Source: Eledone cirrhosa (lineage: Eukaryota). Taken from it: DNA of 64,000 nt. Each line of letters opens with the position of its first letter. Position 1 is the stretch's first letter. The notes under the pieces are model-generated. The model had not been told where the DNA came from. It saw only the letters and a list, made by a program, of their open reading frames with translations, and did not search any database. The translations under genes were made by a program, and so were the position numbers. Shown piece after piece: positions 2,871 through 32,789 of the stretch. The stretch covers positions 51,212,001 through 51,276,000 of the forward strand of contig OZ024745.1 of assembly GCA_964016885.1 (NCBI GenBank), in the 5' to 3' direction.

Positions 2871-3636
<766 letters not shown>

Positions 3637-3828
3637 GTGTCTATAATTCCCACTTTTCCTTCTATCATGCTGCTATTTCTAGTAACATGAAATATCAACG
3701 AGTCTATAACTCCCGCTTTTTCTTACGGCCTATTAGTGTGTGGGTCATTTTAACGGCTTGATTTCATACACCGGGAGAAAGCGATACATCTACTTCTACT
3801 TGGATTTATGTCTAGTAGGTTTGGAAAA

Positions 3829-3908
3829 GCTATCTGAAGAGCTGTATCTTTCCATTGGAAATTCTCTGTATTTCCAATCTTTTGATCAACGAAACCGTCG
3901 GTAATGGC
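3829..3908 (+). ncRNA. Type I hammerhead ribozyme with 50-nt stem II domain, in a probable PLE pLTR remnant (~3633-3980)
   Basis: gctat-CTGAAGA-[50 nt with ttggaaat/atttccaa hairpin]-GAAA-CCGTCGG-TA-atggc; stem I gctat/atggc. Confidence 0.75.
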
Positions 3909-4812
3909 ATTAGAAGGGGTAAATATTTAAATCGTATTTTAATTTATTTAAAAGATTGTTTAAAGTTTACTTGTTCCGCTCATATATATATATATATATA
4001 TATATGTAAGTATATATATGCGCCCATAACAACTTCCTTTTCCGTCTCAAAAGTGTCTTCACCCTATTTTTTAAGCTATTTTATAGCATGAGCACAGCAC
4101 TCCTTATACTAACTTTACCCCACCATCTCTTTGTAAAAGGCCGAATCATTGGCTACGTATATATATATATATAATAGTGATTCTCTGATTACTAGTTCGG
4201 CAAAAACAGGGACGTATGTATTTCTCTAATGAAGTCATGAGAGGAAAAGATATTCTCCATGCCTGTCAAAATATTTAGGACAATGATAACTATTGTTTTT
4301 TGCCATAGCATCCTGGTTAGTATTTTAATGAACCGTACATCAAATACGTTGATACAAACTTAATTATGTTTCAAGTGAAATGGTGTTTCCGATCTATTCA
4401 TTCTCGAAATAATTCTAGTTTTTCTTCGACAATTAATGTACATTATATTTGATTTAATTAGTTATTCTACCATGAAGAGATCTGAAATTACGGTGGAGTG
4501 TATGCTATCGCTGATTATGTTAAAAAAACACGCAATAAGTCAAGAATTGTCTTGTATATTTGGTGTTATATTAATTTGTTGTTTCCTCAGTCTACAACAA
4601 TTTCTGACGAGCTCTTTTTATGTTCACTATATTAATGTGTTTACCACAAACGTAACTATAGATTTTTCAATATTTCTAACGATATTTTTCAAATCTGTCA
4701 TTGAAATATAAGCATACAGGTATAACACCACCTTCAATCGATTTAATAGTAATGTAATTTGACTGGTATGTTTGGATGACAAAATACAATATACGTAATA
4801 GGGATAGAACAG

Positions 4813-4860
<48 letters not shown>

Positions 4861-4997: not shown

Positions 4998-6336
4998 AAA
5001 AAGCCACAAATAAATAATAGATTAGAAGTATTTGGACCGGATTGGCTAATATACCGTCTCCATGCATGCATATTTTATACACTTAGATCAGTTAGAGAAG
5101 AAAACATTCATCGTTCGTTTTTTGTTTTCAACCGCTTTCGTTTTACATTTGAAAGGGGGTAATAGCTCTGAAATATCATTTTGAAATATACTGGGTAAAA
5201 CATTACTTTATTTTATGTTATTTATTATCCTTTGCCCTTTATAAATTTCTACTGTATTGTACTGTCTTGCTAAAATTTATCAGTAATTTATTATATAAAT
5301 CAGTAATTTATATATATATATAAATATTTATATATATATCAGTAATTTATATATATATGGGCAGACTTTCCCATAGTCGCTATGTAAACTTTTCTTTTTG
5401 AAAGGTATGGTAGACTTACAGCCATAGCAGAAGAGGAATGCACTTGTCGAACAGTATTCCGAGAAAAATAGTTTTGTCATGAATACATCAAAGACTACAT
5501 TCTCTATTCATGTAGAATTGAAACCGTTTCGACTTAAATCGCCATCATAATCTCCGTTCTTTCTCTACTAGTTTAGTTGCACTTACATATGATAGTGCAA
5601 ATTAATTCGAAAGAAGGTGACATTCCCGTCATGTTTATAGAGCTCGGTTATGACAGCAAAATAAATTTTCCTAGAAAGCCACGAGAGACATTAGAGATGG
5701 TGACAAATATATGAAGCAGCATATTCTGTAGAGTGTAAGGTGGCAAAATCAATTAAGAGCAAACTGAGAAAACGTATTTTCCTTTATATATACACACACC
5801 ATAAACATTAACACACACAAACATACATACACAGAAATATTTATTAATGCAAACCCAGGGGCACGTACGCATACATTCACACACGTATATAGATATAATT
5901 TAAAGTAAATGGATCTCCATCGGTTTCAGCGATAAATATCGCTGTCGATCGATAAAAAAAGCTAACCACTCTAGTAGTGATAGAATGAGGTACAGTAGCT
6001 GACTAAGGCTGTAGCTAGGTTCTTCACATTTAATATCCTCAAATAAGTTTTTGCTACGAATAAACGTTTCAGCCATTTGAGCCATGCAAACTTAATCCAG
6101 GCTTACTCCAAGCTGAGGTTAAGGCAAGATCATCGTGACACACGAAGTAAACTTGCTGAAACATTGCATGACATTACATATACATTTTAGTGGATACGTG
6201 TTCCTGCTTTTATCACCATATATGTTTATTCACAAGTCTCAATACATGGCTAAGATAAACGACAGTTATCCCAAATTCTACCTAGTGGGATAGGGTATTT
6301 CCTAACCTGTAATCTGTAATCCATATTTAATTATCA

Positions 6337-6431
<95 letters not shown>

Positions 6432-6464
6432 AATGTGTGTGCGCGCGCGCTCGTGTGTGTGTCT

Positions 6465-7165
6465 GTTCCAATTATAGAGGGATCTCCTTGATAAGCTTCC
6501 CCGGTAAATTTCAAGCTAGCCAACGAACAAATATTCTCAGTGGCAAGTTTTTGAAAAATCATAGGAATACTGCCAACAGGTGTATTCTTGTTTTGTATGT
6601 CTCGAAAAGGCATATAACCGCGTAAATCAGGATCTGTTGTGGAAGATTATGCAGGAGTATGAGATCGATGGACATCTTCTTGTTGCCCTGATGTCTCTGT
6701 ACGAATGTCGTATTATTTGTGTTATTTATTGGTCTTAAATCGAAACCATCCAATGTTGTAGAAATCTGTCAACGGTGAGAACTGCCACCTATCCTGGTCA
6801 TTATTTTTATGAACATGGGTGGATTGGCAGTATCAGTAGAGGGTCGGACGCCATGCTTTGACGCATAGAGTTACGGTAGTTGCCTTTCTGTGTTCAAATC
6901 CCGCCGAGGTTAACTTTGCCTTTCATCCTTACGGGGTCGATAAAATAAAGTACCAGTAATGCACTGGGAAATTGCTGGCCTTGTGCCAAAAGTAGAAAAA
7001 ATTATTTTTATGAACATGATTAACATGCGCAGCCGGATTGGAAGTAGAATCACAAGTTGCGGGTGTATGATCTGTCGGCCGGAATTTGCGGACGACATGG
7101 TATAAGGTAACTTGTCAGAAGATGATCTAAGACATGCACTTGGTAGGTTTAATGTGACCTCATTT
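6465..7165 (+). mobile_element. Decayed RTE-type LINE reverse transcriptase fragment, interrupted by a SINE
   Basis: Translates to [42 protein letters not shown] and FADDM, with stops and frameshifts. Confidence 0.8.
6818..7000 (+). mobile_element. tRNA-derived SINE with Meta-like central domain and 18-bp TSD
   Basis: B-box gttcaaatc; domain gcctttcatccttacggggtcgataaaataaagtaccag; TSD attatttttatgaacatg at 6800-6817 and 7001-7018. Confidence 0.85.
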
Positions 7166-7611
7166 CGCTGATAGATATGCTAAAGTCTCTCCTCTGGACC
7201 GGGTAGAGATTATTAATATTTCGACTTCGAACCACTATTCTGAATAATCCAAATTCTCCTCCACAGTTTATAAGTTTTCACACACCCATCCAGCTCACAT
7301 ATACAAGTCTTCAGTTGCTTCTACACAAAAGCCTAAATCAGAGTAAAATACATTACAACACACAAATACACATACTCATTTACACAACACCCGTGTATGC
7401 GATGCAACACATATGAACGTTCCAGCACACACATAACATACACATACCCCGCAACAAATGTAAATATCCACAGCGTTGAACTCAGACATCCCACAACACA
7501 TAAGATTTAGCATTCTATGTACCGAGAAGTATTGCCTTGTCATACGCTCATTCAGCCCCTCCACACATATAGATTTATATGTATATGTTATCGCTTTCTC
7601 TTAATTTCGCG

Positions 7612-9613
7612 TATATTTATTTGACCGGCCACCTTCCTGGTGGCAAGGTTGTAAAAGAAAAGCAATTGTCATCCATTGAATCGCAAGAATGTTTTGCAAA
7701 TTTTGAAGGTGCCAGCTATCGCAGCCATTTGTAGACTATGAATTGGAGAGCTGGGCTTTTTGTCCGCAAATCCAAGTTCAGTCATACTTTGGTTCAAGCG
7801 GGTTGGTATATTACCCGTAGCTCCAATAATGATGGGTATGAAGCTAAAGGTGTATCTTGGATACTGGATTTGTAAACTCCTCATCAATGGTCCGTAGATG
7901 TCCTCCTTCTTCTGTATTTTTCTGATAACGTTTACATCAAGTGGGCAGCTGATCTCCACAACTGAACACGTTTTCAATGTGTGGTCCCAAACAACAATAT
8001 CAGCCCGGTTGTGCTTTAATTTGGTGGCAGTTTTTATTTTCAGGTTCCACCAGTATTCCTTAGTGCCATCTGTCTCAATATATTCTTCCTCGTTTGTTGT
8101 TCCAGATGGTTCTAGATATCCCATCGTGTCTTATGGGGAGGTAATAGCGAGATGACATTCTTTCGCAGCTGGCAACAATGTGGCTAACATCCTCGATCTT
8201 TGTTTTACATAGCCTACATTTATTGTCAGCTGATGGCCTTCTCCTTTTGTGGAGCAGATATTTGGTAGGGAGTTCTTGTTCCTGTATTGCATAGAGATAT
8301 CCCTCAAAGTGTGATGTCATAAACTTGTCGGAACTCTATGCCAGGCTTTTGAGTGGTTTATCCCCTCTATGGTCTATGTTTTACGTCTCAAGTATCCATG
8401 CACAACTTTTTCTGTAAATTGGTCAATTTTTTCATCTTGTTTGAACATTGAATAGGATCTTCCGATTTCTCTGGGTGAGAGATTTATATCAGGCTTTATT
8501 CCATATCTCTCCTCCAGATCAGTGGCTATTCTAATGATATATTTTTTTTCATGCTCATAAACCTGGGCAAGATGGTTGCCAACCTTTTTCCTCTGTTGAA
8601 GATGTTGTTCAGTGTTACTATCCGGGTCTCATATGATGTTAATATGGACTTTAGACCCGGCCACCTTCCTTGCGTGAGAAGTATAGCCTATCCACATCAC
8701 CATTGATGTTAAAGTTCCCAGTAACACTGAGAAGTTTGCGAGTTCTAACATCCATCTCACTTAGTTCTTGCAATGACCAGTTCAGCAGGCCAAATGTTGG
8801 CGTTAGAATTGGCACAGCATAAGTATTGTGGGCAATGTATTTGTTGTACACTGACAGTTCTGATGACCATATTTTCTTTACTCTTCTGAGGTATTCAGTT
8901 CTGATTCTCTCCTTATTTATGGGTCCATCATATCTGACATTCTCATCCTGTCCAATATATCTGTAGTTGTCACCTGACTGTAGAGGTTGTATTGTCAGGC
9001 CGTTCATCTCTAGATTTCTAGAGGAGGGCACAGCTCTTACACGTTTTACTGCCAAATATGCACACTTGGACTCACCAAATTTCATTTTGATGTCTGTTGA
9101 AAATTGTGTAATGAGGTCCAATTGTTTCTTGATGTCATTGATATTTGGCCCATACAACTTCAGGTCATCAACAAAGAAAAGATGGACCCACTTCTTTGTC
9201 CACCTTGTTTCCTGAGTATGTAAGATAGTGGATTTAGTGCTAGAACGAAGAGTAGCACTGACAAGCTATCACCCTGAAAGATGCCCTTCTGGTAATGTAT
9301 CTTATCAGTCTTAACTTGCTCCTTCTCACCTCTAAGGATCAAATTGTTGTACCAGTTCTTGGTCAGACGTTCAACAACAGCTACCTGTGGCTGTGAGACT
9401 TTGGCTAACTGTAAAGCCTTAACAATCCACCCATGAGGTACACTATCAAATGCTTTTTGATAGTCCAGCCACACCACAGTCATGTTTCTGCGATTCTTTG
9501 TTGTTTTTTCTTGAATCATTTTATTAGTTAGTAGGTTATCTATGCAACCCCACACCTCCCTCTTACCACCAGCTTGCTCAGCTGTTATGATGTTGTTGGT
9601 AGCACAGTGATCA
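7612..9613 (-). mobile_element. 5'-truncated R4/Dong-like non-LTR retrotransposon (RT + CCHC + restriction-like endonuclease), frameshifted
   Basis: WLDYQKAFDSVPH, GIFQGDSLS, YFSRKEGG, CRLC..EDVSHIVASC, RHD and RADIVVWD..VVEISCP..KKEDIY in ORFs 9160-9960, 8651-9157, 8075-8320 and 7669-8124. Confidence 0.9.
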
Positions 9614-15706: not shown

Positions 15707-18700
15707 CTACAGGCTGATATAGAGAGAAGGCCCATTCACTCGGGCCATTCTCGCTACTTTCACCCACCTTTCATAAAACTTGCTGGGCTAAAGCACCTCT
15801 CTCTCCATTTTGATCCTTCTTCTAAAGTGGTACTTGAAAAAAAAGACCAGTTGTAGGCCGGAGATAAAGGTGTCTGACCTCAGCCCTTTCAACCTTGTCC
15901 ACCATACAACTTCTTTCGCCATAGCTATCACACAGAGGAAAGCCGCCTCTCCTTCGTTTTTGAAAGGGGGAGGCGGTTTGATCGTGACAATGTTTTCGGT
16001 GGTCAACTGGATTGGTCCCACCCGCGACAGTAGTCGTTCTACATAGTCCTACAGGTCAGCAACGCCCGGGCAGTGTACGAATGCGTGTGCGACGGTTTCC
16101 TCATCACGCACGCATCTCGGACAGATCTTCTTCGAGGGGTCCCTACCCGGGCGTCTGTGTCTGTAGAGCTTGTCCCGAACGGGTAGAGCTCCTCGGTAAC
16201 ATTGCCAAGCCAGGGACTTTTGGAAGTTGTCCATCGGTCCCCGGCCAAACGTCCTACCGAACAGACTGGCCAGCTCATCTTCCTCCATGCCCAGAGCCTC
16301 TCCGAGAGCGTCGTCGCACTTACTGCACACCAACCCTCTATAGAGTGTTGAGGTTGAGTCTCCACTGATTGCCGGATCCGCTTGCCAGAGGGCTGTGAGC
16401 GCCTGGGCACATTCAATGTGCCAGTCGCCCACTTTTCTCGGTCTTTGCTTGACCCAGGATTGCAGCTCAGTGAGTGAGACGAGTCTCGGAAAGGCTCGCC
16501 TCACAAACAGGGCCCACACTGGCTGACCGGTGAGGAATACCTGGAGGTGCCGTAGCCTTAATGTGTGTCTACGCATCGTCAGCCACGGCAACCCCAGCCC
16601 TCCGTTCGAAGGGTGTTGACAGCAGATGGATCTTCTCACCAAAGGAACCCGCTTCTTCCAAAGAAATCGGAAGAGCGCGCGCTCCATTTTGGCGAGTGTT
16701 TTCTCTGGGCAAGGCACGACGGTCAAGCGGTAGTAGATGACGGACGCTATATAAGCGTTCGCCACCTCCGCTCGACCTTCCAGGGATAGTTTGCACTCGG
16801 CCCACTTCTGGGCGAGTGCAAACACCTTGCCCGTTACATCGTCCCAGTTTTTCTCCACCTGGAGGTCCGGTCCGAACCAGACCCCAAGCAGCTTCACCGG
16901 TCCCTCCGTCCAGCGTCCGTCGATGCCGTCGGAGGGCATCGTTTTGCCCCTCCACGTCCCGAGTTGCAAACCGACGGATTTGTCCCGGTTCAGCTTGGCT
17001 CCTGTGAACCTTTCATATTCCTCCAGTAAGGTGCCGATCTGCCCGATTTCCGAGGCGCACGACACCATTACTGTCACGTCATCGGCGTAGGCCGACACCG
17101 CTTTCCGCAATCCCGGTTCCAAGGGGATGCCCTGCAACAGCTCCAGCTTCCGCAGTAGTGACTCGAGAGCCAGCACATACAGGAGGGAGGAGAGAGGGCA
17201 TCCCTGTCGGATGGATCGCGTGATTTGGAACGGCTCCGAGAGGTAGCCGTTCACCTTGACCCTCGTGCATCTGTTGCTGCTGTGCATTGCAGCAATCCAG
17301 CCCCTGAAAACGGGTCCGAAGCCTGCCGCCGCGAGCACCGCATCCAGGTACCGATGGTCAACCCTATCGAACGCCTTAGATTGATCCAAGTTGATCAGGG
17401 CCCCACTAAAGCCGGGTTCGTTCCCTACCCTCTCTACGATGTATCGCATGAGGTGGAGGTTGTCGTGTATGGACTTGGACGGGATTGCGCATGTCTGCGC
17501 TTCTCCCACCAGGTTCCCGACGACAAACGCCAACCTCTTCGCTAACACCTTGGCCAAAATCTTTAACTCTGTGTTTAGCAGAGTTATGGGCCTGAAGTTA
17601 TCTATGTCATCCCCCTTGTTCTCGTCCTTCCTCACCAGCGTGACTACGCCCTTGGTCACAGAACTGGGAATTCTCCCGTTCTGTTGCCAGTTGCAGTAGA
17701 CCGCCTCGAGGAGACCGGAGAACAAGCCTGGCATCGCTACATAGAGTTCGTATGGTAGACCATCGAGACCCGGAGATTTGCGTTTGCCGCATTCGCTCAG
17801 CGCTTCCCCTATTTCAGCGCCTGAAATCGGCCTCTCGAAGGACTACGCCTCCCCGTCCGAGAGCCGCGCCAGACCGTCGAGATATGGACCGAAATCCATG
17901 GCCCCACCCGGCCCGTCGCCCCTCCTGAACAGTCGTGCAAAGCGCCGTTGAAAGGCCGCGCTCATCCGCTCAGGTTCAAGGAACACGCGTCCATCCTGGT
18001 CCTTCAAAGACCGAATCGTGGACTTGTTTCCACTTTTTGCCTCTGTCACTCGGGCCCAGCTAACAGCTTTGGCTCCCTCGTTACCCAGAGCACGTATTTT
18101 ACTCCTGACAACGCAGCCCTCGTGCTTCGCATCAAAGAACTGGTCTAGGGCCGTTCTTGACGCCAGCACGCCGGCCACGTTGCCACTCCTAATCGCCTCT
18201 TCTACTCTATTTATTAATTCCCTTTCAGTTCTATTCCTATCTGATGCTAATTCCCGACTAAAACCTATCGATTCTATTCTAATTTCTCTCTTGAGAGAGA
18301 CCCACCACCTGCTGTTGACAATTGCCCCCGTCAAACGCTGCTTAACTAGTGTGCTAATCCGCTTACTGTAAGCTTTGTTTGTCGGTAAAGACAAGTTTAG
18401 CTTCCATTAACCGGGTCCCTGCCTATGAGTTCTATCAAGGTTGACCACTACGGTCACCAACTTGCCGAATAGTCAATCATGAACATTCGTGGACAGCTTA
18501 ATATGTCCCTATCCTTATTTCTAACTAGGAACCTATCTAGGTACGACCTAGATGTTCCGCTGAGATTAGTCCACGTCCACAGTGGCACAGTCGGAAAATC
18601 TAGTCGATATCTATCGGCCAGATCAAATCGGCCGATTAATCGTTTGAGGCTTTTACACCCCTCTCTATCGGGACATGCTCCTACATAGTCCCAACGTGCA

Positions 18701-19140
18701 TCCAGGATAACATTCCAGTCCCCCACTAAAAGCAAGGAGCGAGACGTTCCCAGGAAATTCTCCAGGCGTCGGAAGAAGTCCGGTCGCGGTATCCCAGATG
18801 GGGCATACGCTGCGACCAGCCTGAAAGCTCCACCTTCACCACTGCCGACGTCTAAAACCACCAGTCGACCCTCCGGGTCCAGGTGTACCTTCTGTGTGTC
18901 AAGACCCAGGTATTTTCGCAGCAGAACGACAACCCCACCCCCGCCCCTCGGCTGACAGAGAGATGCGTAGATCTCAAAGTCGTCGAAGATGGGGGCCAGT
19001 TGGCGCTCGCTGCTGATCCTGGACTCGCAAATAACCATTACATCCACTCTGTGCGACCTGAGGTCATTTAAGAGTTTGCCCTGTTTCCAGGACATCCCCA
19101 GGCCGCGTGCATTCACACATCCAACTCTTATATAGGCCAT
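15707..19140 (-). pseudogene. LINE ORF2 (APE endonuclease-RT-CCHC) with at least one frameshift and several in-frame stops
   Basis: NARGL, ICES, GDWN, SYLDRF; KSPGLDG, FRPITLLN, LDQSKAFDRVDH, IRQGCPLS, AYADDV; CPRC..ETVAHAFVHC. Confidence 0.92.
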
Positions 19141-19147
19141 GTTGGTG

Positions 19148-19186
19148 CTGAAGAGTTAAAAAGGAAGAGGAAAGGAAATTACTTAC
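19148..19186 (-). other. Candidate 39-nt GT-AG intron between ORF1 and ORF2
   Basis: AG|GTAAGT-aatttcctttcctcttcctttttaactcttCAG|CACCAACATGG. Confidence 0.5.
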
Positions 19187-19893
19187 CTCTTCGTCTCCTG
19201 GGGACCAGGCTGCACAATTTCCATGGGGGTGTTGGAAGGGTTGTTTGGTGGGGTGGTGGTTTGTGGTGGGGTGAGGACATCAGTGTGTGGTAGGATTAGG
19301 GTGTTTGGTGGGGTGTGGGTGGCTGGTGTGGGAGTGGGGAAACATCTCAATAGGACGTGGTTAAGTGGTTTGGTGCAGTTGGTCCCCACATGCATTGGAT
19401 GGTTCTTTTTGAAAGTTACGTAGGTTTCCGTTGGGACCCTAATCATCATTAGGTGCGGTTTGTTCGCTGCGTAGGTGAAAGTGATCCCTTCGATTTCCAC
19501 CGAAGGGTTATTTTCTATTGCTTTCAATAAAGTTTTATTGTTCTTGTTAATGTATGTATAGAGTTTTTGTTGTGTTGTGTTTGTTTTTGTTTGTTGTTCT
19601 TGTGCGTGTTTGCGTTTTGTAGTATGTGTTATGTTTTGGGGAGGGGTGGTTTTTGTTTGTGATGTTTGTTCTGTTTGTGCTGGTGGTTGTGTGTTTGTAG
19701 CATTTTTGTTAATGTGGTGCCTTTTTTTCCTCTTCACCTGTTGAAAGGGTTCTCCCTCGTCGTCACTGGGTGACGTTGATATGGAGTCCTCTTCCATGTT
19801 GTTGGGGAGGGGTATAAATTGGGGTTTTGTTGTGGTTGCTTTTGTATTTGTTTTAGGTGGGGAGGGGTTGGGTGTAACAGTGTTTTTAAACAA
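19183..19893 (-). CDS. Putative LINE ORF1 (short or 5'-truncated, low complexity)
   Basis: Open frame directly upstream of ORF2; basic FQQVKRKKR patch; true start uncertain (ATG of MEEDS is possible). Confidence 0.6.
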   Translation of the reverse strand: MFKNTVTPNPSPPKTNTKATTTKPQFIPLPNNMEEDSISTSPSDDEGEPFQQVKRKKRHHINKNATNTQPPAQTEQTSQTKTTPPQNITHTTKRKHAQEQQTKTNTTQQKLYTYINKNNKTLLKAIENNPSVEIEGITFTYAANKPHLMMIRVPTETYVTFKKNHPMHVGTNCTKPLNHVLLRCFPTPTPATHTPPNTLILPHTDVLTPPQTTTPPNNPSNTPMEIVQPGPQETKR

Positions 19894-20116
19894 TGTAGGT
19901 CAGGTGGCCGTAATAGTCGGTTTTTATCTGTATTAACTTGCCCATTATTTAGCTTTGTTAGTGTTGTCTTATACACGTATGCTATTGAGGATGAGAAAGA
20001 TAGACAGCTCTCTCATCTAATATAGACCACACAAATTCCACTACAGTGATAAATACTTCATCGGTCAGATAAAAACCGACTATTACGGCCACCTGACCTA
20101 CATTGTTTAAAAACAC
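19880..20116. repeat. Perfect 51-bp inverted repeat (19880-19930 / 20066-20116)
   Basis: Checked base by base. Confidence 0.95.
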
Positions 20117-20522
20117 CAGCTTATCTCTACAATTGATATAATACACCCTACGACAGTTTTTACATGTCAATTTTATACATCTGCCTCATGTCAGCTAGTT
20201 TTACACGCTAAATTCATAGATATACTATACTTCCCACCTAGATTGATGTTGTGATTATTTCAAATAATTTATTGCTAACATTGTTGATATTGTTGTTATT
20301 GTTCTAACTGAATGCCATTACTACTACATATAGTAGCCTGTATATTCTTTTCATGCCTGTATATTCTCTTCATTCTCGCAAGCAGCGATGAACTGACTGG
20401 TTATAACTTTGTATTGGCGATCGAGTAACGTGAAAATAAGCGGATAGTTCAGAGAAACAATTGTCAGCAATGAGATTAAAAACCTTTTTTTGTATAGCAA
20501 ACCGTGTCACTCTTCTTTCCTG

Positions 20523-20590
<68 letters not shown>

Positions 20591-20736
20591 TATTTTCCGT
20601 TGTGTTGTAATATAAATATTACACACAGTAGATTATCAGCTCACGTAGAGTTTGCTCGACGGTTCCAGTTGTAGTTCCAAAAGTAATCCGGAGAAAAATA
20701 GAAAGATTTGAATGGATACAGTTTAGTTGAAAGGAA

Positions 20737-20854
20737 TTTATTGACACGTGTTTCTATAACAGTTACATAACCTAAAACAGCTATCTACAAACTTTTAGTT
20801 ATGCAGACATTCAATATTTCAATGTTATTATTTACTGTCATTTCATCAGAATAA
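20737..20854 (-). ncRNA. Hammerhead ribozyme of PLE family A, copy 1
   Basis: Reverse complement of 30097-30214. Confidence 0.8.
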
Positions 20855-21444
20855 TATTACTGAGGACCTATTTAGTTTTTATAGAGAATATTAGGAGGAA
20901 GGGGTGAAGTTGTTAGAAGAATAGTTGAAGGAGTGGTTTTTCGATAGCAGTGAGAATTCTTGGTGGCAGTGATTAATTAGATTCCCATCTGTTGTTTTGA
21001 CATTTTTATAGAATATATTATTGGTTATTTTTCTAAATCTATAGAAGGATTAGAGATAGTAAAGATATGCGTGGTTGGTTTTGTGTTTGCACTTAACATT
21101 CAGACTTAAATTTTTCTTTCAAGTGTACGTATTCTTTCACCCACGCATTCACACACAAATATATTTGCACACCTCTACAAAAATACATATACTCACAATT
21201 CACATATTCATACTTACATATATATACACATGCATACACATATATATACACACATGTATTCATGTACATACATACGCGCTCATGTGTATACATTTTCATA
21301 CTCAACTTATCTTTATATATACACACGTATAGACACACACATATATACATACATACTCTAGTCCATGTGTACACACATACACATACATACACATCCATAT
21401 ACACATACATACATACACATATATATATACATATATACATATAC

Positions 21445-21475
<31 letters not shown>

Positions 21476-21498
21476 CACATACATATATACACACATAT

Positions 21499-21533
<35 letters not shown>

Positions 21534-21802
21534 AGCACTTTAATACATGAATACACTTACATCTAACTATACACATCAAACATATATATATATTTACTTA
21601 TTTATATACATTTTCACATATATATACATACTTATGGACGTTTTTAGACACATTCATTATCGCATATTTGTACCTATTCTCATCAGCATATCTTTTCATT
21701 ATTAGTATGGTAATTTAAGGTTATTAATATATGTTGAAAAGAGATTGTTTTTATATTTTTCTAACTAGATTAAGGTTTATATAGTTGGGGGATGTCCCTC
21801 TT

Positions 21803-24124
21803 TTATGTAATATTCGGCTTGTAGTGGGAAAAAAGGGTTTTAGTTCTGTGACGGCAGAATAATGTTCGTTCAATTCTGTTATTCAGCAGTTTCTTCTTGT
21901 GTGTGATTATGTAATAAATCTCAAGATTACACAATTTGCAGAAATTTTGGCTCCTGGAAAAGCTTTGGGTTTTAGCTAATTTTTCCCATTTTAGGGTAAA
22001 CTTTTGATTGCTATCCCTGAGCGTCCAAGCTTTCTCTGCTAAAGTTGTTACATTTCTTTGGCTCTGGTGTTTTATTGAGTAAGAATGCCTATACAATCGA
22101 GATTTAAACGATGTTGCCGTTGATCCCACGTAATACCACTCGTTGCCTCCGGATTTAATGGTACACTTATAAATAATATTTTTTTCCAGGCAGTTATTGC
22201 CGAGGGGGCAGTTGTCAGGATAGGTGCAGTTACAGTTGTGTACGTTGGGTTTTCTCTGGAGTAGTATTGCGGACGAACTTAGGTGTGGTTTATTTATGTT
22301 CTGTAGTGTATTGTCTACTGTTTTTTTGGGGTTCTTTGTACTTAAGTTCTTAGTGTTTTCGTTTAACCTTCTAGTATTGATCTTTTTTATGTGTTGTTCA
22401 AGGTTTAACGCTGTAGAGTATGACAGTCTTATAGTGGTAGGGTTTAGGATTTTGTGGTATTTGTGTGATGTGGGAAAATGTCTTTTAATTATTTTAAAGA
22501 AGAGTACTGGTAAATTTGTACTAATGGAGCTATTGTATTCGGGGTTATACCATAAGTACTCTTTGCATCGCTTTCTATTAGTTTTGTTTGTTGGTTTACT
22601 GGTGTGCATACTATGGTAGTAAGTGTGGTTTGGTGTTGTGTTATTATATCTACCTATGTGGGATTTATTTTGGGTGTTTTGATTGTTCCCATCTATGTAC
22701 TCTATTTTGTTGAGGTAGCCTGCTTTACTAAGGGCGTTATCGTAGTACTCGGCGTGTTCCTTAAATACTTGTATGTTAGAAGATAGACCCGAGATTCTAA
22801 GGGAAATATTTTTAGGGATAGATTTAATTATAGAGATGGGGTGGTTAGACCCAACATTTACGTATTTGAGATTTTCATTCAATTTATGAAACGGTTTAAT
22901 CAAACCAGAGTTTAAATTGAGTGTGACATCCAGGAAGTTAACTACTTTAAGGTTGTATTCATATGTTATAGTTAGTCCTATTTCGAGTAGTAGTTTTCTT
23001 ATATCTTTGCGTAGTTTTTCTAGTTTTTGGTTATTAAGGTTTTTAGCTAGGAGGAGAACATCGTCGCGGTATATTCCGCCGTGGAGATTGCTGAATTTTT
23101 CCTGGAGTCTAAAGGCGATAAATAACCCCACAATATCAGTTATTTCCGCCGAATCGTTAGAGCCCATTGTTATGTCAAAGTTAGAGGGTCTATCTTTACG
23201 TACCCAATAACTGTTCTCAAATTTGACTATAGTTTTCCTAGCTTCTAATATAATCTTAATTTCATCGTTTGTAAGGTCGGAGTTATCCTTAGCAAACTTA
23301 ATGGCTCTATTCAAAGTTTCAGGTGATATCGATGAGTAATATTCATCGATATCAAACTGGATAAACTTAGATTTATTCTTATTGCTAATGCTATTAAACC
23401 ATCTTATTGCTTCTTGGGTCTTCCCCCAGAGTTTAATGTTAACCTTAGCCTTAATTTGGGGGATGATTCTATCTAAGATATATTTGCTTATTTTACCTAT
23501 ATCTGATTTAGAGGGGCAGATTAATCTAATTTTAGGGTCATTATCAAAGTTTACCTTGTGGTCCTTAAGATTGAAAGTGGGTACCGCCGGTAAGAGTGGT
23601 CCTGTCCTATCTTCGATTCCGAGATTTTTCACTATTTCGCATGCCTCATCATTGATGTGCTTAAGGGTTATTTCACTCGTTTTTCTATATTTTTTATGTA
23701 ATTCTTTTCGAATGAAGTTGTTGTATGTAGTGCAATCCATAGTGTACAGGTTTGATGTTTTGTCCGCTTTTACTACAATTCCTTTGGTGTTTTTAAGGTC
23801 GTCCAGTAGTTTTTTTATATCTTTCTGTAATTTGCTGTTGGTGTTGCGTCCTTTGAATTTAATTTTAAGGATTAAGTTCATAAGGTCCTGCTCAAATGCA
23901 TCTAATAGTGGGTTGGTGGGTGGGTTTTTACAAGTCCTAAAACCGAATTTTTTGTTTACACCACTTTCTAATGTTGAGTTCATACGGCTTCTATCATAGT
24001 GGAGCGTTTTCCACCTGACACGTCGAATGAATTCATTAGTTTTTTGAATCATGCTCAATAAATATTCCTTTCTACCTTGGGTGGGTATGTTTTTGAGTGA
24101 CATATCCAGGTAGTGTTTTTCCAT
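21803..24124 (-). CDS. Intact PLE polyprotein: RT + C-terminal GIY-YIG endonuclease (773 aa, Naiad-like)
   Basis: SLKNIP, KADKT, QFDIDEYYSSI, FDITMGSNDSAEI, IYRDD, NFLDVTL, SNHP; CNC..CPL..C; NIIYKC..YYVG..FKSRLYRH; CKLC..E; CRH. Confidence 0.95.
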   Translation of the reverse strand: MEKHYLDMSLKNIPTQGRKEYLLSMIQKTNEFIRRVRWKTLHYDRSRMNSTLESGVNKKFGFRTCKNPPTNPLLDAFEQDLMNLILKIKFKGRNTNSKLQKDIKKLLDDLKNTKGIVVKADKTSNLYTMDCTTYNNFIRKELHKKYRKTSEITLKHINDEACEIVKNLGIEDRTGPLLPAVPTFNLKDHKVNFDNDPKIRLICPSKSDIGKISKYILDRIIPQIKAKVNIKLWGKTQEAIRWFNSISNKNKSKFIQFDIDEYYSSISPETLNRAIKFAKDNSDLTNDEIKIILEARKTIVKFENSYWVRKDRPSNFDITMGSNDSAEITDIVGLFIAFRLQEKFSNLHGGIYRDDVLLLAKNLNNQKLEKLRKDIRKLLLEIGLTITYEYNLKVVNFLDVTLNLNSGLIKPFHKLNENLKYVNVGSNHPISIIKSIPKNISLRISGLSSNIQVFKEHAEYYDNALSKAGYLNKIEYIDGNNQNTQNKSHIGRYNNTTPNHTYYHSMHTSKPTNKTNRKRCKEYLWYNPEYNSSISTNLPVLFFKIIKRHFPTSHKYHKILNPTTIRLSYSTALNLEQHIKKINTRRLNENTKNLSTKNPKKTVDNTLQNINKPHLSSSAILLQRKPNVHNCNCTYPDNCPLGNNCLEKNIIYKCTIKSGGNEWYYVGSTATSFKSRLYRHSYSIKHQSQRNVTTLAEKAWTLRDSNQKFTLKWEKLAKTQSFSRSQNFCKLCNLEIYYIITHKKKLLNNRIERTLFCRHRTKTLFSHYKPNIT

Positions 24125-24327
24125 TGTTGTGGTTGCGTTTGCTGTGTGGGTTGCTCGACTTTACAGGAGGTAAATATACAGTATTTTCCGTTGTGTTGTA
24201 ATATAAATATTACACACAGTAGATTATCAGCTCACGTAGAGTTTGCTCGACGGTTCCAGTTGTAGTTCCAAAAGTAATCCGGAGAAAAATAGAAAGATTT
24301 GAATGGATACAGTTTAGTTGAAAGGAA

Positions 24328-24445
24328 TTTATTGACACGTGTTTCTATAACAGTTACATAACCTAAAACAGCTATCTACAAACTTTTAGTTATGCAGACA
24401 TTCAATATTTCAATGTTATTATTTACTGTCATTTCATCAGAATAA
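24328..24445 (-). ncRNA. Hammerhead ribozyme of PLE family A, copy 2
   Basis: Same sequence as copy 1, offset 3591. Confidence 0.8.
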
Positions 24446-25035
24446 TATTACTGAGGACCTATTTAGTTTTTATAGAGAATATTAGGAGGAAGGGGTGAAG
24501 TTGTTAGAAGAATAGTTGAAGGAGTGGTTTTTCGATAGCAGTGAGAATTCTTGGTGGCAGTGATTAATTAGATTCCCATCTGTTGTTTTGACATTTTTAT
24601 AGAATATATTATTGGTTATTTTTCTAAATCTATAGAAGGATTAGAGATAGTAAAGATATGCGTGGTTGGTTTTGTGTTTGCACTTAACATTCAGACTTAA
24701 ATTTTTCTTTCAAGTGTACGTATTCTTTCACCCACGCATTCACACACAAATATATTTGCACACCTCTACAAAAATACATATACTCACAATTCACATATTC
24801 ATACTTACATATATATACACATGCATACACATATATATACACACATGTATTCATGTACATACATACGCGCTCATGTGTATACATTTTCATACTCAACTTA
24901 TCTTTATATATACACACGTATAGACACACACATATATACATACATACTCTAGTCCATGTGTACACACATACACATACATACACATCCATATACACATACA
25001 TACATACACATATATATATACATATATACATATAC

Positions 25036-25066
<31 letters not shown>

Positions 25067-25089
25067 CACATACATATATACACACATAT

Positions 25090-25124
<35 letters not shown>

Positions 25125-25393
25125 AGCACTTTAATACATGAATACACTTACATCTAACTATACACATCAAACATATATATATATTTACTTATTTATATAC
25201 ATTTTCACATATATATACATACTTATGGACGTTTTTAGACACATTCATTATCGCATATTTGTACCTATTCTCATCAGCATATCTTTTCATTATTAGTATG
25301 GTAATTTAAGGTTATTAATATATGTTGAAAAGAGATTGTTTTTATATTTTTCTAACTAGATTAAGGTTTATATAGTTGGGGGATGTCCCTCTT

Positions 25394-27325
25394 TTATGTA
25401 ATATTCGGCTTGTAGTGGGAAAAAAGGGTTTTAGTTCTGTGACGGCAGAATAATGTTCGTTCAATTCTGTTATTCAGCAGTTTCTTCTTGTGTGTGATTA
25501 TGTAATAAATCTCAAGATTACACAATTTGCAGAAATTTTGGCTCCTGGAAAAGCTTTGGGTTTTAGCTAATTTTTCCCATTTTAGGGTAAACTTTTGATT
25601 GCTATCCCTGAGCGTCCAAGCTTTCTCTGCTAAAGTTGTTACATTTCTTTGGCTCTGGTGTTTTATTGAGTAAGAATGCCTATACAATCGAGATTTAAAC
25701 GATGTTGCCGTTGATCCCACGTAATACCACTCGTTGCCTCCGGATTTAATGGTACACTTATAAATAATATTTTTTTCCAGGCAGTTATTGCCGAGGGGGC
25801 AGTTGTCAGGATAGGTGCAGTTACAGTTGTGTACGTTGGGTTTTCTCTGGAGTAGTATTGCGGACGAACTTAGGTGTGGTTTATTTATGTTCTGTAGTGT
25901 ATTGTCTACTGTTTTTTTGGGGTTCTTTGTACTTAAGTTCTTAGTGTTTTCGTTTAACCTTCTAGTATTGATCTTTTTTATGTGTTGTTCAAGGTTTAAC
26001 GCTGTAGAGTATGACAGTCTTATAGTGGTAGGGTTTAGGATTTTGTGGTATTTGTGTGATGTGGGAAAATGTCTTTTAATTATTTTAAAGAAGAGTACTG
26101 GTAAATTTGTACTAATGGAGCTATTGTATTCGGGGTTATACCATAAGTACTCTTTGCATCGCTTTCTATTAGTTTTGTTTGTTGGTTTACTGGTGTGCAT
26201 ACTATGGTAGTAAGTGTGGTTTGGTGTTGTGTTATTATATCTACCTATGTGGGATTTATTTTGGGTGTTTTGATTGTTCCCATCTATGTACTCTATTTTG
26301 TTGAGGTAGCCTGCTTTACTAAGGGCGTTATCGTAGTACTCGGCGTGTTCCTTAAATACTTGTATGTTAGAAGATAGACCCGAGATTCTAAGGGAAATAT
26401 TTTTAGGGATAGATTTAATTATAGAGATGGGGTGGTTAGACCCAACATTTACGTATTTGAGATTTTCATTCAATTTATGAAACGGTTTAATCAAACCAGA
26501 GTTTAAATTGAGTGTGACATCCAGGAAGTTAACTACTTTAAGGTTGTATTCATATGTTATAGTTAGTCCTATTTCGAGTAGTAGTTTTCTTATATCTTTG
26601 CGTAGTTTTTCTAGTTTTTGGTTATTAAGGTTTTTAGCTAGGAGGAGAACATCGTCGCGGTATATTCCGCCGTGGAGATTGCTGAATTTTTCCTGGAGTC
26701 TAAAGGCGATAAATAACCCCACAATATCAGTTATTTCCGCCGAATCGTTAGAGCCCATTGTTATGTCAAAGTTAGAGGGTCTATCTTTACGTACCCAATA
26801 ACTGTTCTCAAATTTGACTATAGTTTTCCTAGCTTCTAATATAATCTTAATTTCATCGTTTGTAAGGTCGGAGTTATCCTTAGCAAACTTAATGGCTCTA
26901 TTCAAAGTTTCAGGTGATATCGATGAGTAATATTCATCGATATCAAACTGGATAAACTTAGATTTATTCTTATTGCTAATGCTATTAAACCATCTTATTG
27001 CTTCTTGGGTCTTCCCCCAGAGTTTAATGTTAACCTTAGCCTTAATTTGGGGGATGATTCTATCTAAGATATATTTGCTTATTTTACCTATATCTGATTT
27101 AGAGAGGCAGATTAATCTAATTTTAGGGTCATTATCAGAGTTTACCTTGTGGTCCTTAAGATTGAAAGTGGGTACCGCCGGTAAGAGTGGTCCTGTCCTA
27201 TCTTCGATTCCGAGATTTTTCACTATTTCGCATGCCTCATCATTGATGTGCTTAAGGGTTACTTCACTCGTTTTTCTATATTTTTTATGTAATTCTTTTC
27301 GAATGAAGTTGTTGTATGTAGTGCA
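25394..27325 (-). pseudogene. 5'-truncated second copy of the PLE ORF
   Basis: Near-identical to 21803-23734; ends at the inversion junction. Confidence 0.95.
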
Positions 27326-27365
27326 CTCTTACCGGCGTTGTTGTATGTAGTGCACTCTTACCGGC
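27308..27365. repeat. 29-bp tandem duplication spanning the inversion junction
   Basis: gttgttgtatgtagtgcactcttaccggc x2. Confidence 0.95.
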
Positions 27366-29148
27366 GGTACCCACTTTCAATCTTAAGGACCACAAGGTAA
27401 ACTTTGATAATGACCCTAAAATTAGATTAATCTGCCCCTCTAAATCAGATATAGGTAAAATAAGCAAATATATCTTAGATAGAATCATCCCCCAAATTAA
27501 GGCTAAGGTTAACATTAAACTCTGGGGGAAGACCCAAGAAGCAATAAGATGGTTTAATAGCATTAGCAATAAGAATAAATCTAAGTTTATCCAGTTTGAT
27601 ATCGATGAATATTACTCATCGATATCACCTGAAACTTTGAATAGAGCCATTAAGTTTGCTAAGGATAACTCCGACCTTACAAACGATGAAATTAAGATTA
27701 TATTAGAAGCTAGGAAAACTATAGTCAAATTTGAGAACAGTTATTGGGTACGTAAAGATAGACCCTCTAACTTTGACATAACAATGGGCTCTAAAGATTC
27801 GGCGGAAATAACTGATATTGTGGGGTTATTTATCGCCTTTAGACTCCAGGAAAAATTCAGCAATCTCCACGGCGGAATATACCGCGACGATGTTCTCCTC
27901 CTAGCTAAAAACCTTAATAACCAAAAACTAGAAAAACTACGCAAAGATATAAGAAAACTACTACTCGAAATAGGACTAACTATAACATATGAATACAACC
28001 TTAAAGTAGTTAACTTCCTGGATGTCACACTCAATTTAAACTCTGGTTTGATTAAACCGTTTCATAAATTGAATGAAAATCTCAAATACGTAAATGTTGG
28101 GTCTAACCACCCCATCTCTATAATTAAATCTATCCCTAAAAATATTTCCCTTAGAATCTCGGGTCTATCTTCTAACATACAAGTATTTAAGGAACACGCC
28201 GAGTACTACGATAACGCCCTTAGTAAAGCAGGCTACCTCAACAAAATAGAGTACATAGATGGGAACAATCAAAACACCCAAAATAAATCCCACATAGGTA
28301 GATATAATAACACAACACCAAACCACACCTACTACCATAGTATGCACACCAGTAAACCAACAAACAAAACTAATAGAAAGCGATGCAAAGAGTACTTATG
28401 GTATAACCCCGAATACAATAGCTCCATTAGTACAAATTTACCAGTACTCTTCTTTAAAATAATTAAAAGACATTTTCCCACATCACACAAATACCACAAA
28501 ATCCTAAACCCTACCACTATAAGACTGTCATACTCTACAGCGTTAAACCTTGAACAACACATAAAAAAGATCAATACTAGAAGGTTAAACGAAAACACTA
28601 AGAACTTAAGTACAAAGAACCCCAAAAAAACAGTAGACAATACACTACAGAACATAAATAAACCACACCTAAGTTCGTCCGCAATACTACTCCAGAGAAA
28701 ACCCAACGTACACAACTGTAACTGCACCTATCCTGACAACTGCCCCCTCGGCAATAACTGCCTGGAAAAAAATATTATTTATAAGTGTACCATTAAATCC
28801 GGAGGCAACGAGTGGTATTACGTGGGATCAACGGCAACATCGTTTAAATCTCGATTGTATAGGCATTCTTACTCAATAAAACACCAGAGCCAAAGAAATG
28901 TAACAACTTTAGCAGAGAAAGCTTGGACGCTCAGGGATAGCAATCAAAAGTTTACCCTAAAATGGGAAAAATTAGCTAAAACCCAAAGCTTTTCCAGGAG
29001 CCAAAATTTCTGCAAATTGTGTAATCTTGAGATTTATTACATAATCACACACAAGAAGAAACTGCTGAATAACAGAATTGAACGAACATTATTCTGCCGT
29101 CACAGAACTAAAACCCTTTTTTCCCACTACAAGCCGAATATTACATAA
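27353..29148 (+). pseudogene. Inverted, 5'-truncated third copy of the PLE ORF
   Basis: Reverse complement of 25394-27189; reading frame still open. Confidence 0.95.
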
Positions 29149-29260
29149 AAGAGGGACATCCCCCAACTATATAAACCTTAATCTAGTTAGAAAAATATAA
29201 AAACAATCTCTTTTCAACATATATTAATAACCTTAAATTACCATACTAATAATGAAAAGA

Positions 29261-29318
29261 TATGCTGATGAGAATAGGTACAAATATGCGATAATGAATG
29301 TGTCTAAAAACGTCCATA
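29261..29318 (+). ncRNA. Second, degenerate hammerhead-like motif in the PLE 3' UTR (also 21633-21690 and 25224-25281 on the - strand)
   Basis: tatg-CTGATGA-gaa-taggtaca...tgtgtcta-AAAA-CGTC-cata; GAAA reads AAAA. Confidence 0.5.
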
Positions 29319-29417
29319 AGTATGTATATATATGTGAAAATGTATATAAATAAGTAAATATATATATATGTTTGATGTGTATAGTTAGATGTAAGTGTAT
29401 TCATGTATTAAAGTGCT

Positions 29418-29452
<35 letters not shown>

Positions 29453-29475
29453 ATATGTGTGTATATATGTATGTG

Positions 29476-29506
<31 letters not shown>

Positions 29507-30096
29507 GTATATGTATATATGTATATATATATGTGTATGTATGTATGTGTATATGGATGTGTATGTATGTGTATGTGTGTACACATGGACTAGAGTATGT
29601 ATGTATATATGTGTGTGTCTATACGTGTGTATATATAAAGATAAGTTGAGTATGAAAATGTATACACATGAGCGCGTATGTATGTACATGAATACATGTG
29701 TGTATATATATGTGTATGCATGTGTATATATATGTAAGTATGAATATGTGAATTGTGAGTATATGTATTTTTGTAGAGGTGTGCAAATATATTTGTGTGT
29801 GAATGCGTGGGTGAAAGAATACGTACACTTGAAAGAAAAATTTAAGTCTGAATGTTAAGTGCAAACACAAAACCAACCACGCATATCTTTACTATCTCTA
29901 ATCCTTCTATAGATTTAGAAAAATAACCAATAATATATTCTATAAAAATGTCAAAACAACAGATGGGAATCTAATTAATCACTGCCACCAAGAATTCTCA
30001 CTGCTATCGAAAAACCACTCCTTCAACTATTCTTCTAACAACTTCACCCCTTCCTCCTAATATTCTCTATAAAAACTAAATAGGTCCTCAGTAATA

Positions 30097-30214
30097 TTAT
30101 TCTGATGAAATGACAGTAAATAATAACATTGAAATATTGAATGTCTGCATAACTAAAAGTTTGTAGATAGCTGTTTTAGGTTATGTAACTGTTATAGAAA
30201 CACGTGTCAATAAA
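30097..30214 (+). ncRNA. Hammerhead ribozyme of PLE family A, copy 3, with 88-nt branched stem II domain
   Basis: ttatt-CTGATGA-a-atgacagt...actgttat-a-GAAA-CACGT-GTC-aataa; palindromic stem III CACGTG. Confidence 0.8.
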
Positions 30215-30247
30215 TTCCTTTCAACTAAACTGTATCCATTCAAATCT

Positions 30248-30325
<78 letters not shown>

Positions 30326-32789
30326 AAATACTTATATATGTAACTCTAATTATAGGGATATTATAGGGTATATAATTATCTGCCATAGCATCAATTTTGT
30401 GAAACCGGGCTTCAGAAAATTGAAAAGACATACTTAATTAAGAAATGTTAAAATTACACAAAATATTAATGAAATTTAGTCCGTCGTATGTGCATAGATA
30501 CACAAACATAATTAATGTAGACATCCATGAATCAAAACGTACAGATTCATACACGATACGACATGCATACATACATGCAGCCATATATATGCGTGTGAGG
30601 ATGAATGGGTGCACTGATGACAATCTAGTCGATATTGTTTAAATTCCAATGAAATAGCTTTTGTTCTGGGCAGGAGACCGATTCATTATTAGTGAGAAAT
30701 TTGTAAAATTATAGCGGAAGAAAATACATAGAAACTGAAATACATATTCTACATACCTTTAATAACTTATACCTATAATAATCTCTATCCCGTAGTGCAT
30801 GACAACAAGTCCAATTAATTACCTATGTTCATACACACGAAATGGGTCGACATGGCGTTAAGTTAGAAGACATTTTCCCAAGTTGCAGTCTAATGGAAAC
30901 AAAGCCGGAATATCAGGCTTGAGAATTTGGCGGCCTCATCTGTGTTCATAATACCAGCCCACATACTTAGACACAAACACGCACATATTTTCCAATACGC
31001 ACATCCAGATACAGAAATGTTCTTTCACTTTCTCACTACACACAAATGAATATGTATAAAGATTCGCCTGTGTATGTCCAATTATATATATTACGAAGCG
31101 TCAGCTCACTCCCGATCAAGCAGATCTATTGTAGTTATGTAGATAGTTGAAATACTCAGTGTGCTCCACAATACACATTACACATGTCCTAGTCAACTGT
31201 ATAAGCTACATGCTCAGGGCAGTCACATGGTTTCTGCATTGACCTTTCTATATCTGTACGCCTGTTGTTTCGCTACATGATAATTTCGCTACATGATTAA
31301 ATAGATCTCTGACTAGATGTGCTCCAGTCAAGGCAAGCATGTCCTTTTACGTGTATCTGGGACTGTAATATTGTGTTATTTCCATCTTAGTACAGTGCGT
31401 GGAGTTAACCGATTCTCTTTCTATGCTTGAGTTTAATTGAATTTTATGTTTTATCGATTTTGGTAGAATATTTTTAGGTAGGTGTTTTTTAGTCTGTTTT
31501 CTCATGCTGCGGGTACATCTCTTTGTTTCGTGGTGACAGTGCCTTCCACGACAAACACTGAGCGAGCTGGTATGTGCTGCAGCATCAAATACGACTCTGT
31601 TTTTACTAGATGCTTTTTCAATTTTAGTATTATATAACGCTTGCTGATCCTACGACAAGCGAAGTCTGAAAATCCCTTTCATTTCATTTACGAGCCTATT
31701 GCCCTACAAAAAGTATAAATGTCATAATCTCATATCTTCTATTCTATTATGCAACCTGACTGAAACTTTAATGACAGGGAGACTGAAGAAACGAGAGAAT
31801 AGTATTTGAATGTTTAATCATCCATTTTGTTTTCCCATCAAATTTTGGTAATAATACCTGGTATAGTTGTAGTGTGGATGGTCTTGTGAATCGTCACGTT
31901 TTTAGAGAGTATATACAGTTGGCTTTGCTGATGTTGATATTTATATTACAGTTGTGTTGCCAAGCTAAAACTGTTATTTTGTTAGTGTATTTAGGATGTC
32001 TTTTATTCTCAAGGCGTTTTAACACGATTTCATTATCTTCTCTTTTCACTCCTCTACATCTCTCTCCACTCTCTATCCTAGACGAAACGTTCTTTAACAG
32101 TGACTATTATTTTCATCTTCTGAGGCGTTATAAAAGGTGTTATTTTTGATAGCTGTAAGAAAATGAAAGAAACTTGATAACAATATAAAAACAAATGACT
32201 AGCATATACGCATAGAGACACAATAAATTCATATATCCCTTTAGATTACTGCGGAAAATAAAACACGTCATTGTCGTCAAAAGCAGGAGACATTATTTGA
32301 GGAAAATAAGAAAATAGAAAAGAAAAATCGTGGTTATATATTTTAGAGAACACGCCTAGCCTTGAACTGAGATTTACGAGCTATAGAGAAAATAGGCTGG
32401 AGTAACACTTCAAGGATCACCATTCCAACAAAGATGGTATTCATTCAACATCAATACAATTAGATTGGCATTGTCAGTGTTAGCACTATCTCAACTAGCA
32501 ACAGTCTTCTATTATTGAATTATATATTTGACTAATACAGAGTACAAAGCTCGTTGACTTTCATTTCCTTCAATATTCCGACTGTTCCTCGGGAAATAGG
32601 AGTTAAGTTTCTGAAATAAAATACAGTTATCATTGTTGTCATCAGTAAATAATTGATGAGTCCATATTTGCTTTACTTACTGTACCTACCAACTTAATTT
32701 AATCTTGTTTTATCCATGTTGTTGTTTCGATAAGGTGAACCCATTATATAAAATGATATCTGTGTATTTAGGGCAATGTTAAATGTTGA

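Follow-up and report, generated by a model that had tools for sequence, protein, structure and literature searches.

The window analysed here, a stretch of 64,000 nucleotides (nt) from Eledone cirrhosa (assembly GCA_964016885.1, contig OZ024745.1, positions 51,212,001 to 51,276,000 of the forward strand), holds a block of 9.7 kilobases (kb) built from a single Penelope-like element (PLE). With a probability that we put at roughly 0.7, this block is one young insertion of a Hydra-type PLE into a (TA)n microsatellite, likely made in a single event: both ends of the target primed synthesis, from sites 115 nt apart on the element, and the two products were joined through the dinucleotide CA.

The block spans positions 20583-30253 and consists of three units whose 3' ends point outward, a structure that is far beyond chance. 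It comes out of a repeat scan of the window, which finds a direct repeat of period 3591 and inverted arms of 2901 nt, the segments 20698-23598 and 24289-27189 facing 27353-30253, and then of a base-by-base comparison of the units. With unit A as the reference for mapping, a unit position equals 24174 minus the window position, and the features of the composite are the following.

20583..24173, minus strand: unit A, the full unit of 3591 nt (repeat scan and base-by-base mapping)
24174..27325, minus strand: unit B, tandem and 5'-truncated, unit positions 440-3591 (base-by-base mapping)
27353..30253, plus strand: unit C, inverted, 5'-truncated and tail-free, unit positions 576-3476 (mapping)
20583..20697, minus strand: tail of 115 nt, unit positions 3477-3591, present at one outer end only (flank comparison)
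21211..21641, minus strand: TG/TA-rich microsatellite within the 3' region of unit A (repeat and Rfam scans)
21803..24124, minus strand: complete open reading frame (ORF) P0001, 773 amino acids, with a predicted telomerase-like reverse transcriptase (RT), a predicted C-terminal GIY-YIG domain and Hydra-clade motifs
27309..27366, no strand: head-to-head joint of B and C, with a 2-nt CA overlap and a 29-nt duplication
about 20527..20587, no strand: left part of the (TA)n target, overlapping the terminal TATAT of the element (flank sequence)
30251..30320, no strand: right part of the (TA)n target (flank sequence)

Unit A opens with a leader of about 49 nt, followed by the ORF and by a 3' region of 1.2 kb that closes with the 115-nt tail. 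Its ORF is the only complete one of the composite, those of B and C being truncated at the N-terminus. Unit B, with its truncated ORF inside, stands upstream of unit A as a pseudo-long terminal repeat (pLTR). An earlier note on this DNA had described an intact unit of 3591 bp, a tandem truncated unit that supplies its pLTR, an inverted truncated unit, and 3' ends facing outward at both termini: mapping confirms this architecture. The two termini are not equivalent. Both abut (TA)n, a scan of the window placing a (TA)≥15 tract at 20556-20587, but the right end stops at the equivalent of position 20698, and the left end runs 115 nt further, so that only the left one carries the tail.

The two arms that meet at the joint are of unequal length, 6746 nt (1.9 units) versus 2901 nt, and their inner break points differ. 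Unit B has three mismatches to unit A, at window positions 23514, 23547 and 23671; over its 2901 nt, unit C departs from A at two sites and from B at four. The 2.9-kb palindrome of the earlier note thus exists, with arms of 2901 nt, but is imperfect: its arms are 99.86% identical and differ at two to four sites. The 163 nt that had been read as a spacer between the arms are not foreign: unit B continues through 136 nt of them, and the rest is due to a 29-nt duplication across the joint, with one copy at 27309-27337 and the next at 27338-27366. Mapping of the whole window finds no further copy of the element.

Recurrence of the layout, its ends and its joints

A search of the genome with the DNA of the ORF yields 4337 first-look candidates, of which the best 40 were scored; these 40 establish that at least 40 copies of the ORF exist at about 100% identity. 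The sample used below consists of 34 loci, namely the window and 33 others that lie behind the best 40 ORF matches and are contained in 34 stretches of sequence, all mapped to unit A, and is restricted to loci with full ORFs.

Head-to-head composites are found at 25 of these 34 loci, with 3' ends outward in every case, and simple partial tandems at the other nine; an upstream partial unit is present at all 34. The palindrome is the normal state of the family and no special trait of the locus. In the 23 composites that can be fully assessed, one outer end is at unit position 3476, the other at 3591, and (TA)n is present at both. If each end were chosen independently, the probability that all 23 are mixed would be at most 0.5^23. 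Simple insertions have their 3' end at 3476 in seven of the eight readable cases, and at 3591 in the eighth. Among the 46 arms of the 23 composites, 27 exceed one unit; one arm is contained in the other in 15 composites, including that of the window, and neither is contained in the remaining eight. Since the same layout and the same rule for the ends are found at other loci, the window locus is a normal product of its family, with a layout that matches published PLE insertions.

Of the 25 head-to-head joints, 16 overlap by 1-10 nt, three are blunt and six contain filler, of 2, 16, 24, 33, 35 and 123 nt, and in none of the 25 composites is there a (TA)n tract at the joint. Four of the fillers, including that of the window, are short local duplications of the joint sequence. 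Over the 19 filler-free joints the mean microhomology is 2.95 nt, versus 0.74 in random joints of the same sequence, and not one of 100,000 resamplings reached the observed mean.

Some joints have peculiarities of their own. The 123-nt filler of locus L020 (3843-3965) is GC-rich and foreign, is found at six other places of the genome with 84-99% identity, and belongs to no Rfam family; it looks like a segment captured by template switching. Two unrelated composites, L021 and L032, have an inner break point in common, at unit position 2182, and their fillers (6293-6308 and 4807-4841, respectively) are stuttered, built of adjacent AAAATGGGAAAAATTAG.. sequence. Unit position 2182 may be a site at which the polymerase is prone to slip.

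Sequence identity adds to the case at the level of the family. When units of the same locus are paired, 55 of 85,629 sites differ (0.064%); for pairs from different loci the figure is 15,842 of 4,726,522 (0.335%), about five times more, with a median divergence of about 3 per kb. At the other loci, inverted arms have 0.70 differences per kb, and hold 122 common bases that are not those of unit A, versus 35 sites where the arms differ. At locus L006, a premature stop at codon 568 is common to both full-length arms (1885-4206 and 5731-8052): either the two were made from one defective template, which implies mobilisation in trans, or the arms were later homogenised. The within-locus identity, the shared non-reference bases and the shared stop together indicate that the arms of one composite come from one source, as their joint synthesis would predict.

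The ORF is intact in 36 of the 39 full ORF-spanning copies at the sampled loci, and the three units of the composite differ almost exclusively at singleton sites; the insertion is therefore very recent, in agreement with the earlier note. Of the five differences among A, B and C, four are singletons when 45-51 sampled units are compared, and these are new changes, whether polymerase errors or later mutations, rather than markers of lineages. The suggestion that the composite is an active source copy was overstated: at least 36 copies are equally intact, and nothing marks the ORF of the composite as the source. The 2.9 kb of double-stranded RNA that the earlier note expects from read-through would be a hypothetical product.

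The protein, the undetected hammerhead and the surroundings

Sequence profiles say little about P0001. Pfam gives no hits for the ORF, for its RT part or for its C-terminal part, and a single sub-threshold RVT_1 match among 20 relatives; a sequence-profile search of the PDB with the ORF gives none at E ≤ 1. Its relatives in protein databases are proteins of about 700 amino acids, 31-43% identical across nearly their full length and almost all unnamed or 'uncharacterized', the nearest among the matches being 43% identical.

The predicted structures are more telling. The full-length model, built with relatives, has a predicted local distance difference test score (pLDDT) of 82.6, and its top Foldseek matches are telomerase RTs (6zdq_A at E 2.9e-10, 3du5_A at 7e-9; range 2.9e-10 to 3e-8), followed by other RTs. 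The model of the C-terminal 134 amino acids has a pLDDT of 85.4, and a wide search with VIA-align matches it to the catalytic domain of I-TevI (Z 10.1, root-mean-square deviation 2.4, 89 of 92 residues), to T4 EndoII (Z 8.7) and to the GIY-YIG domain of UvrC (Z 6.7). For this model Foldseek returns nothing at E ≤ 0.001, and only weak rows for the I-TevI, T4 EndoII and UvrC enzymes. Residues Y13, Y26/G28, R37, H41, E96 and N109 of the C-terminal part are invariant in 15 sequences, and the YRDD motif is conserved in the relatives of the ORF, over 20 aligned sequences. A telomerase-like RT and a GIY-YIG nuclease in one ORF define an endonuclease-bearing PLE. Because the models place both in the single ORF of the unit, with an RT fold nearest to telomerase RTs and, at the C-terminus, a GIY-YIG fold, the element is such a PLE, as the earlier note had proposed.

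The signatures of the Hydra clade, as listed by Craig et al. 2021 (PMC8557442), are the RWK motif, DKT replacing DKG, a linker of the form CxCX5C, a lost CCHH finger, CxxC and CxH on the flanks of the catalytic E and N, and insertion into (TA)n; the families described there likewise have a single ORF with an RT and, at the C-terminus, a GIY-YIG domain. In P0001, RWK (RRVRWKT) and DKT (KADKTSN) are present and kept across the 20 aligned sequences. The linker reads CNCTYPDNC and is kept in the aligned relatives, as is, in both alignments of relatives, CKLC..E..N..CRH for CxxC..E..N..CxH. In the interval from GIY to YIG, cysteine is absent from the relatives and occurs once, unconserved, in P0001, which leaves no CCHH. 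Judged by every published protein signature together with its (TA)n target, the element belongs to the Hydra type. It differs from the described families on two counts. Its unit is 3.59 kb long, against 'generally <3 kb' in the account of PMC8557442, partly because of the 430-nt TG/TA microsatellite in the 3' region; the second count is the hammerhead ribozyme, 'readily detected' in its canonical form in the families of that account and not detectable here.

A side feature of the protein is a pair of N/T/H-rich stretches, residues 483-520 and 598-627 (window positions about 22244-22678), with pLDDT below 50. They are mostly missing from the aligned relatives, and recall the asparagine-rich inserts that PMC3846280 describes in rotifer PLEs.

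Searches with Rfam find no hammerhead family at E ≤ 1 over 12 kb, none at the gathering score over the window, and, in the 751 nt of the pLTR end, none at E ≤ 10. A core-like motif, CUGAUGA..GAAA with a helix II of 4 bp at 20817-20849, was rejected as a hammerhead: its helix I cannot pair. A hammerhead cleavage site at the 3476/3477 boundary was rejected by eye. The loose core CTGANGA..GAAA occurs 17 times in the window, where 3.3 are expected, and no hammerhead family reaches the Rfam thresholds. The hammerhead-to-hammerhead monomer or the circle, which the earlier note had envisaged, has thus no basis here. The hammerhead is typical of the pLTR of canonical PLE clades and absent from Naiad and Chlamys, so that membership does not require it. 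For a Poseidon PLE (PMC11167929), a multi-copy transcript is the proposed template and the hammerhead is dispensable; the missing detectable hammerhead fits this in vitro finding that insertion can do without the ribozyme. Two other RNA candidates were dropped: the microRNA-like Rfam hits, as low-complexity matches on TG/TA repeats, and a stable hairpin joining the two start sites, the RNA fold of the tail region having a z of -0.72, like shuffles.

We now turn to the surroundings of the composite. The window holds 23 (TA)n tracts of at least 30 nt, and targets for the family are therefore plentiful in it. The left flank, 20200-20526, itself belongs to a repeat family of greater age, which stops where the (TA)n tract begins and has 2225 first-look candidates, with 86-94% identity among copies; for the right flank, 30322-30650, the assembly has no second copy. 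A search of the assembly with both flanks, the left one being repetitive, found no haplotig or allele with an empty site. About 700 nt to the left of the composite lies the GC-rich remnant of a non-LTR retrotransposon (16049-19899, minus strand), with matches to Exo_endo_phos at E 1.9e-12, to RVT_1 at E 6e-27 and to zf-RVT spread over several open frames.

Sequencing runs labelled with several other organisms contain 47-70% of the 31-mers sampled from positions 26800-30800, and over about 340 nt contigs from two other-organism runs depart from the element at 0-2 sites; no RNA run is among those listed as containing the sequence. The organisms could be closely related, the samples could be shared, or the element could have spread recently across species; on the boldest reading, such near-identical copies would hint at very recent interspecies spread.

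One event or several

In the mechanism that we favour, both ends of the cut target would prime complementary DNA (cDNA) synthesis on an element RNA longer than one unit. The left DNA end would start at unit position 3591 and copy 6.7 kb, or 1.9 units, and the right DNA end would start at unit position 3476 and copy 2.9 kb. The two cDNAs would then pair head to head through the 2-nt CA microhomology, and each would serve as template for the second strand of the other. Since the duplicated 29-nt unit spans the joint, its duplication would be due to slippage after the joint was formed. Unit B would from then on act as upstream pLTR of the intact unit A, in a putative promoter role.

Several observations are in keeping with these steps. 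Both presumed start sites are at UAU/UAUAU, able to pair with the 3' end of a (TA)n. With the purified protein of a Poseidon-clade PLE, both strands of an AT-rich target are cut and then extended in vitro, reverse transcription begins from two adjacent internal sites of the RNA, and the genomic tail is the stretch between them (PMC11167929). A template of more than one unit is required; the earlier note had named multimeric or circular RNA, and multimeric RNA, circular RNA and template jumping are indistinguishable by the data. Its single event with priming from both target ends fits the family-wide data and PMC11167929, and for the locus of the composite itself we still infer it.

The geometry of the locus is also compatible with self-priming, a snap-back in which the left-end cDNA would fold back 136 nt from its tip and copy itself into unit C. 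Arkhipova et al. 2013 (PMC3846280) propose this route for the head-to-head PLE repeats of bdelloid rotifers, and it suits a unit C (576-3476) that lies wholly inside unit B (440-3591), the two overlapping by 2 nt where they meet, as well as the nested arms of the 15 composites. It is nevertheless improbable here. In the eight un-nested composites neither arm can be a copy of the other, and self-priming is therefore not the general route; it would need to stop at exactly 3476 or 3591 every time; and unit C lacks the two private bases of B, which in that case could not be errors made during the synthesis of B. Less likely still are two independent insertions, the tandem of A and B on one side and an opposite truncated copy on the other, hitting the same (TA)n hot spot. 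The family does target (TA)n strongly, and its many near-identical source copies make the high identity of the arms indecisive at the window locus. Against this stand the 25 composites that have neither (TA)n nor any other target DNA between their arms, the microhomology at the joints, the 23 composites with one end of each kind, and the private variants that arms have in common, including a stop codon.

An artefact of assembly, whether a chimeric long read that folds back on itself or a wrong join between copies that are nearly identical, has some points in its favour: dozens of copies of the family are about 99.7% alike, PLE composites are known to trouble assemblies (PMC8557442), and the contigs examined leave the joint uncovered. 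A fold-back read, however, would yield a symmetric and identical palindrome, and what we have is unequal arms with different inner break points and singleton bases of their own, and a 29-nt duplication across the joint. The layout, the rule for the ends and the (TA)n flanks recur, moreover, at 24 other loci, on many contigs and with different break points, and the layout is a published natural structure; we give an artefact as slim a chance as two separate insertions. Slightly slimmer is that of a later rearrangement, in which a plain tandem would have gained its inverted part through repair or a switch of template during replication. Replication slippage does leave scars such as the short duplication at the joint, but the inverted unit ends exactly at 3476 against (TA)n, as in 22 other composites, and a random duplication would not.

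Returning to the single two-ended event, several points weigh against it or blunt the evidence for it. At unit position 503 the bases of A and B are not the same, and that of A recurs in copies at two other loci, which could mean two templates or a recurrent change. Within the window, A and C have 2 differences over 2370 sites, a closeness that 2.5% of between-locus pairs equal or exceed; for B and C, with 4 over 2370, the share is 16%. The closest foreign copy, at locus L009, differs from A at 2 of 3060 sites: taken alone, identity at the window does not tell a single event from two. The arms may also owe their likeness to gene conversion. The stronger arguments for one event at the window are the direct joint free of (TA)n, the exact fit to one end of each kind, and the single microsatellite at both ends. 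The containment of C in B is compatible with self-priming as well. Logan contigs of four runs, examined over 27150-27560, leave 27332-27345 uncovered, and with it the joint without read-level confirmation; contig joints on 'opposite strands' in this interval were set aside as ordinary element contigs that fit either arm through 40 shared letters, and are not the B/C joint. The sample, finally, is limited to full-ORF loci and to 40 scored candidates out of 4337.

The strict use of one start site per end raises a difficulty of its own. In vitro, both start sites were used alike on both strands, with no strand specificity (PMC11167929), and the rule is consequently left without an experimental explanation. 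A tentative one, which we consider possible and rather doubtful, is that two protomers are bound to the same RNA at a distance of 115 nt, with each extending one end of the break and both arms then coming from a single RNA; the rule could in that case be a trace, left in the genome, of the integration complex.

Known systems and significance

The element studied by Frangieh et al. 2024 (PMC11167929), PAc of Anolis carolinensis, is a Poseidon PLE that likewise has an AT-rich target, two start sites and a tail that lies between them. Its clade is another one, it has its start sites in the start of the ORF, where they are not homologous to the target, and its two strands used both sites alike, whereas each composite here uses one of each. 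A typical PLE insertion, as drawn in Fig. 2 of PMC8557442 and as described in PMC3846280, consists of two direct pLTRs, an adjoining copy that is inverted and 5'-truncated, and a tail on a single side; the earlier note was correct in calling partial tandem and inverted arrays usual in PLEs, both accounts giving the same layout as ours. Canonical endonuclease-bearing PLEs, such as Penelope of Drosophila virilis and Pen2a of Adineta vaga, are described with this layout, a one-ended tail and 5' microhomology joints. In these descriptions the tail is about 30-40 nt, against 115 nt here, and the pLTRs are about 200 bp, against arms of kilobases here, up to 1.9 units at the window; the target-site duplication is unreadable here, the target being a microsatellite.

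In the twin priming of human LINE-1, reportedly put forward by Ostertag and Kazazian in 2001, the second target end also primes a cDNA, and the outcome is an inverted segment joined by microhomology. There, the second primer is said to anneal inside the same RNA, which gives an inversion without duplication; here, both arms hold the same 3' region, and each can exceed one unit.

The layout and the integration biology are thus known. What is new is a young and abundant Hydra-type PLE with a long tail of 115 nt and with no hammerhead detected. The value of the locus is to be one of dozens of fresh, near-undamaged insertions of the little-studied Hydra clade. These insertions are a natural record, of fixed start sites 115 nt apart with one per DNA end, of arms longer than one unit, and of microhomology joints with stutters or filler. 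For one Poseidon element, cleavage and extension of both strands and a tail originating from two start sites were seen in vitro; the record gives support for both from living genomes and from another clade, and argues against self-priming as a general route. It also holds a warning for annotation: such kilobase palindromes are real products of the element, and not necessarily assembly errors. If the reading with two protomers on one RNA is true, this would be an active Hydra-type PLE without a hammerhead, whose fresh insertions could settle the origin of the tandem and inverted repeats of PLEs.

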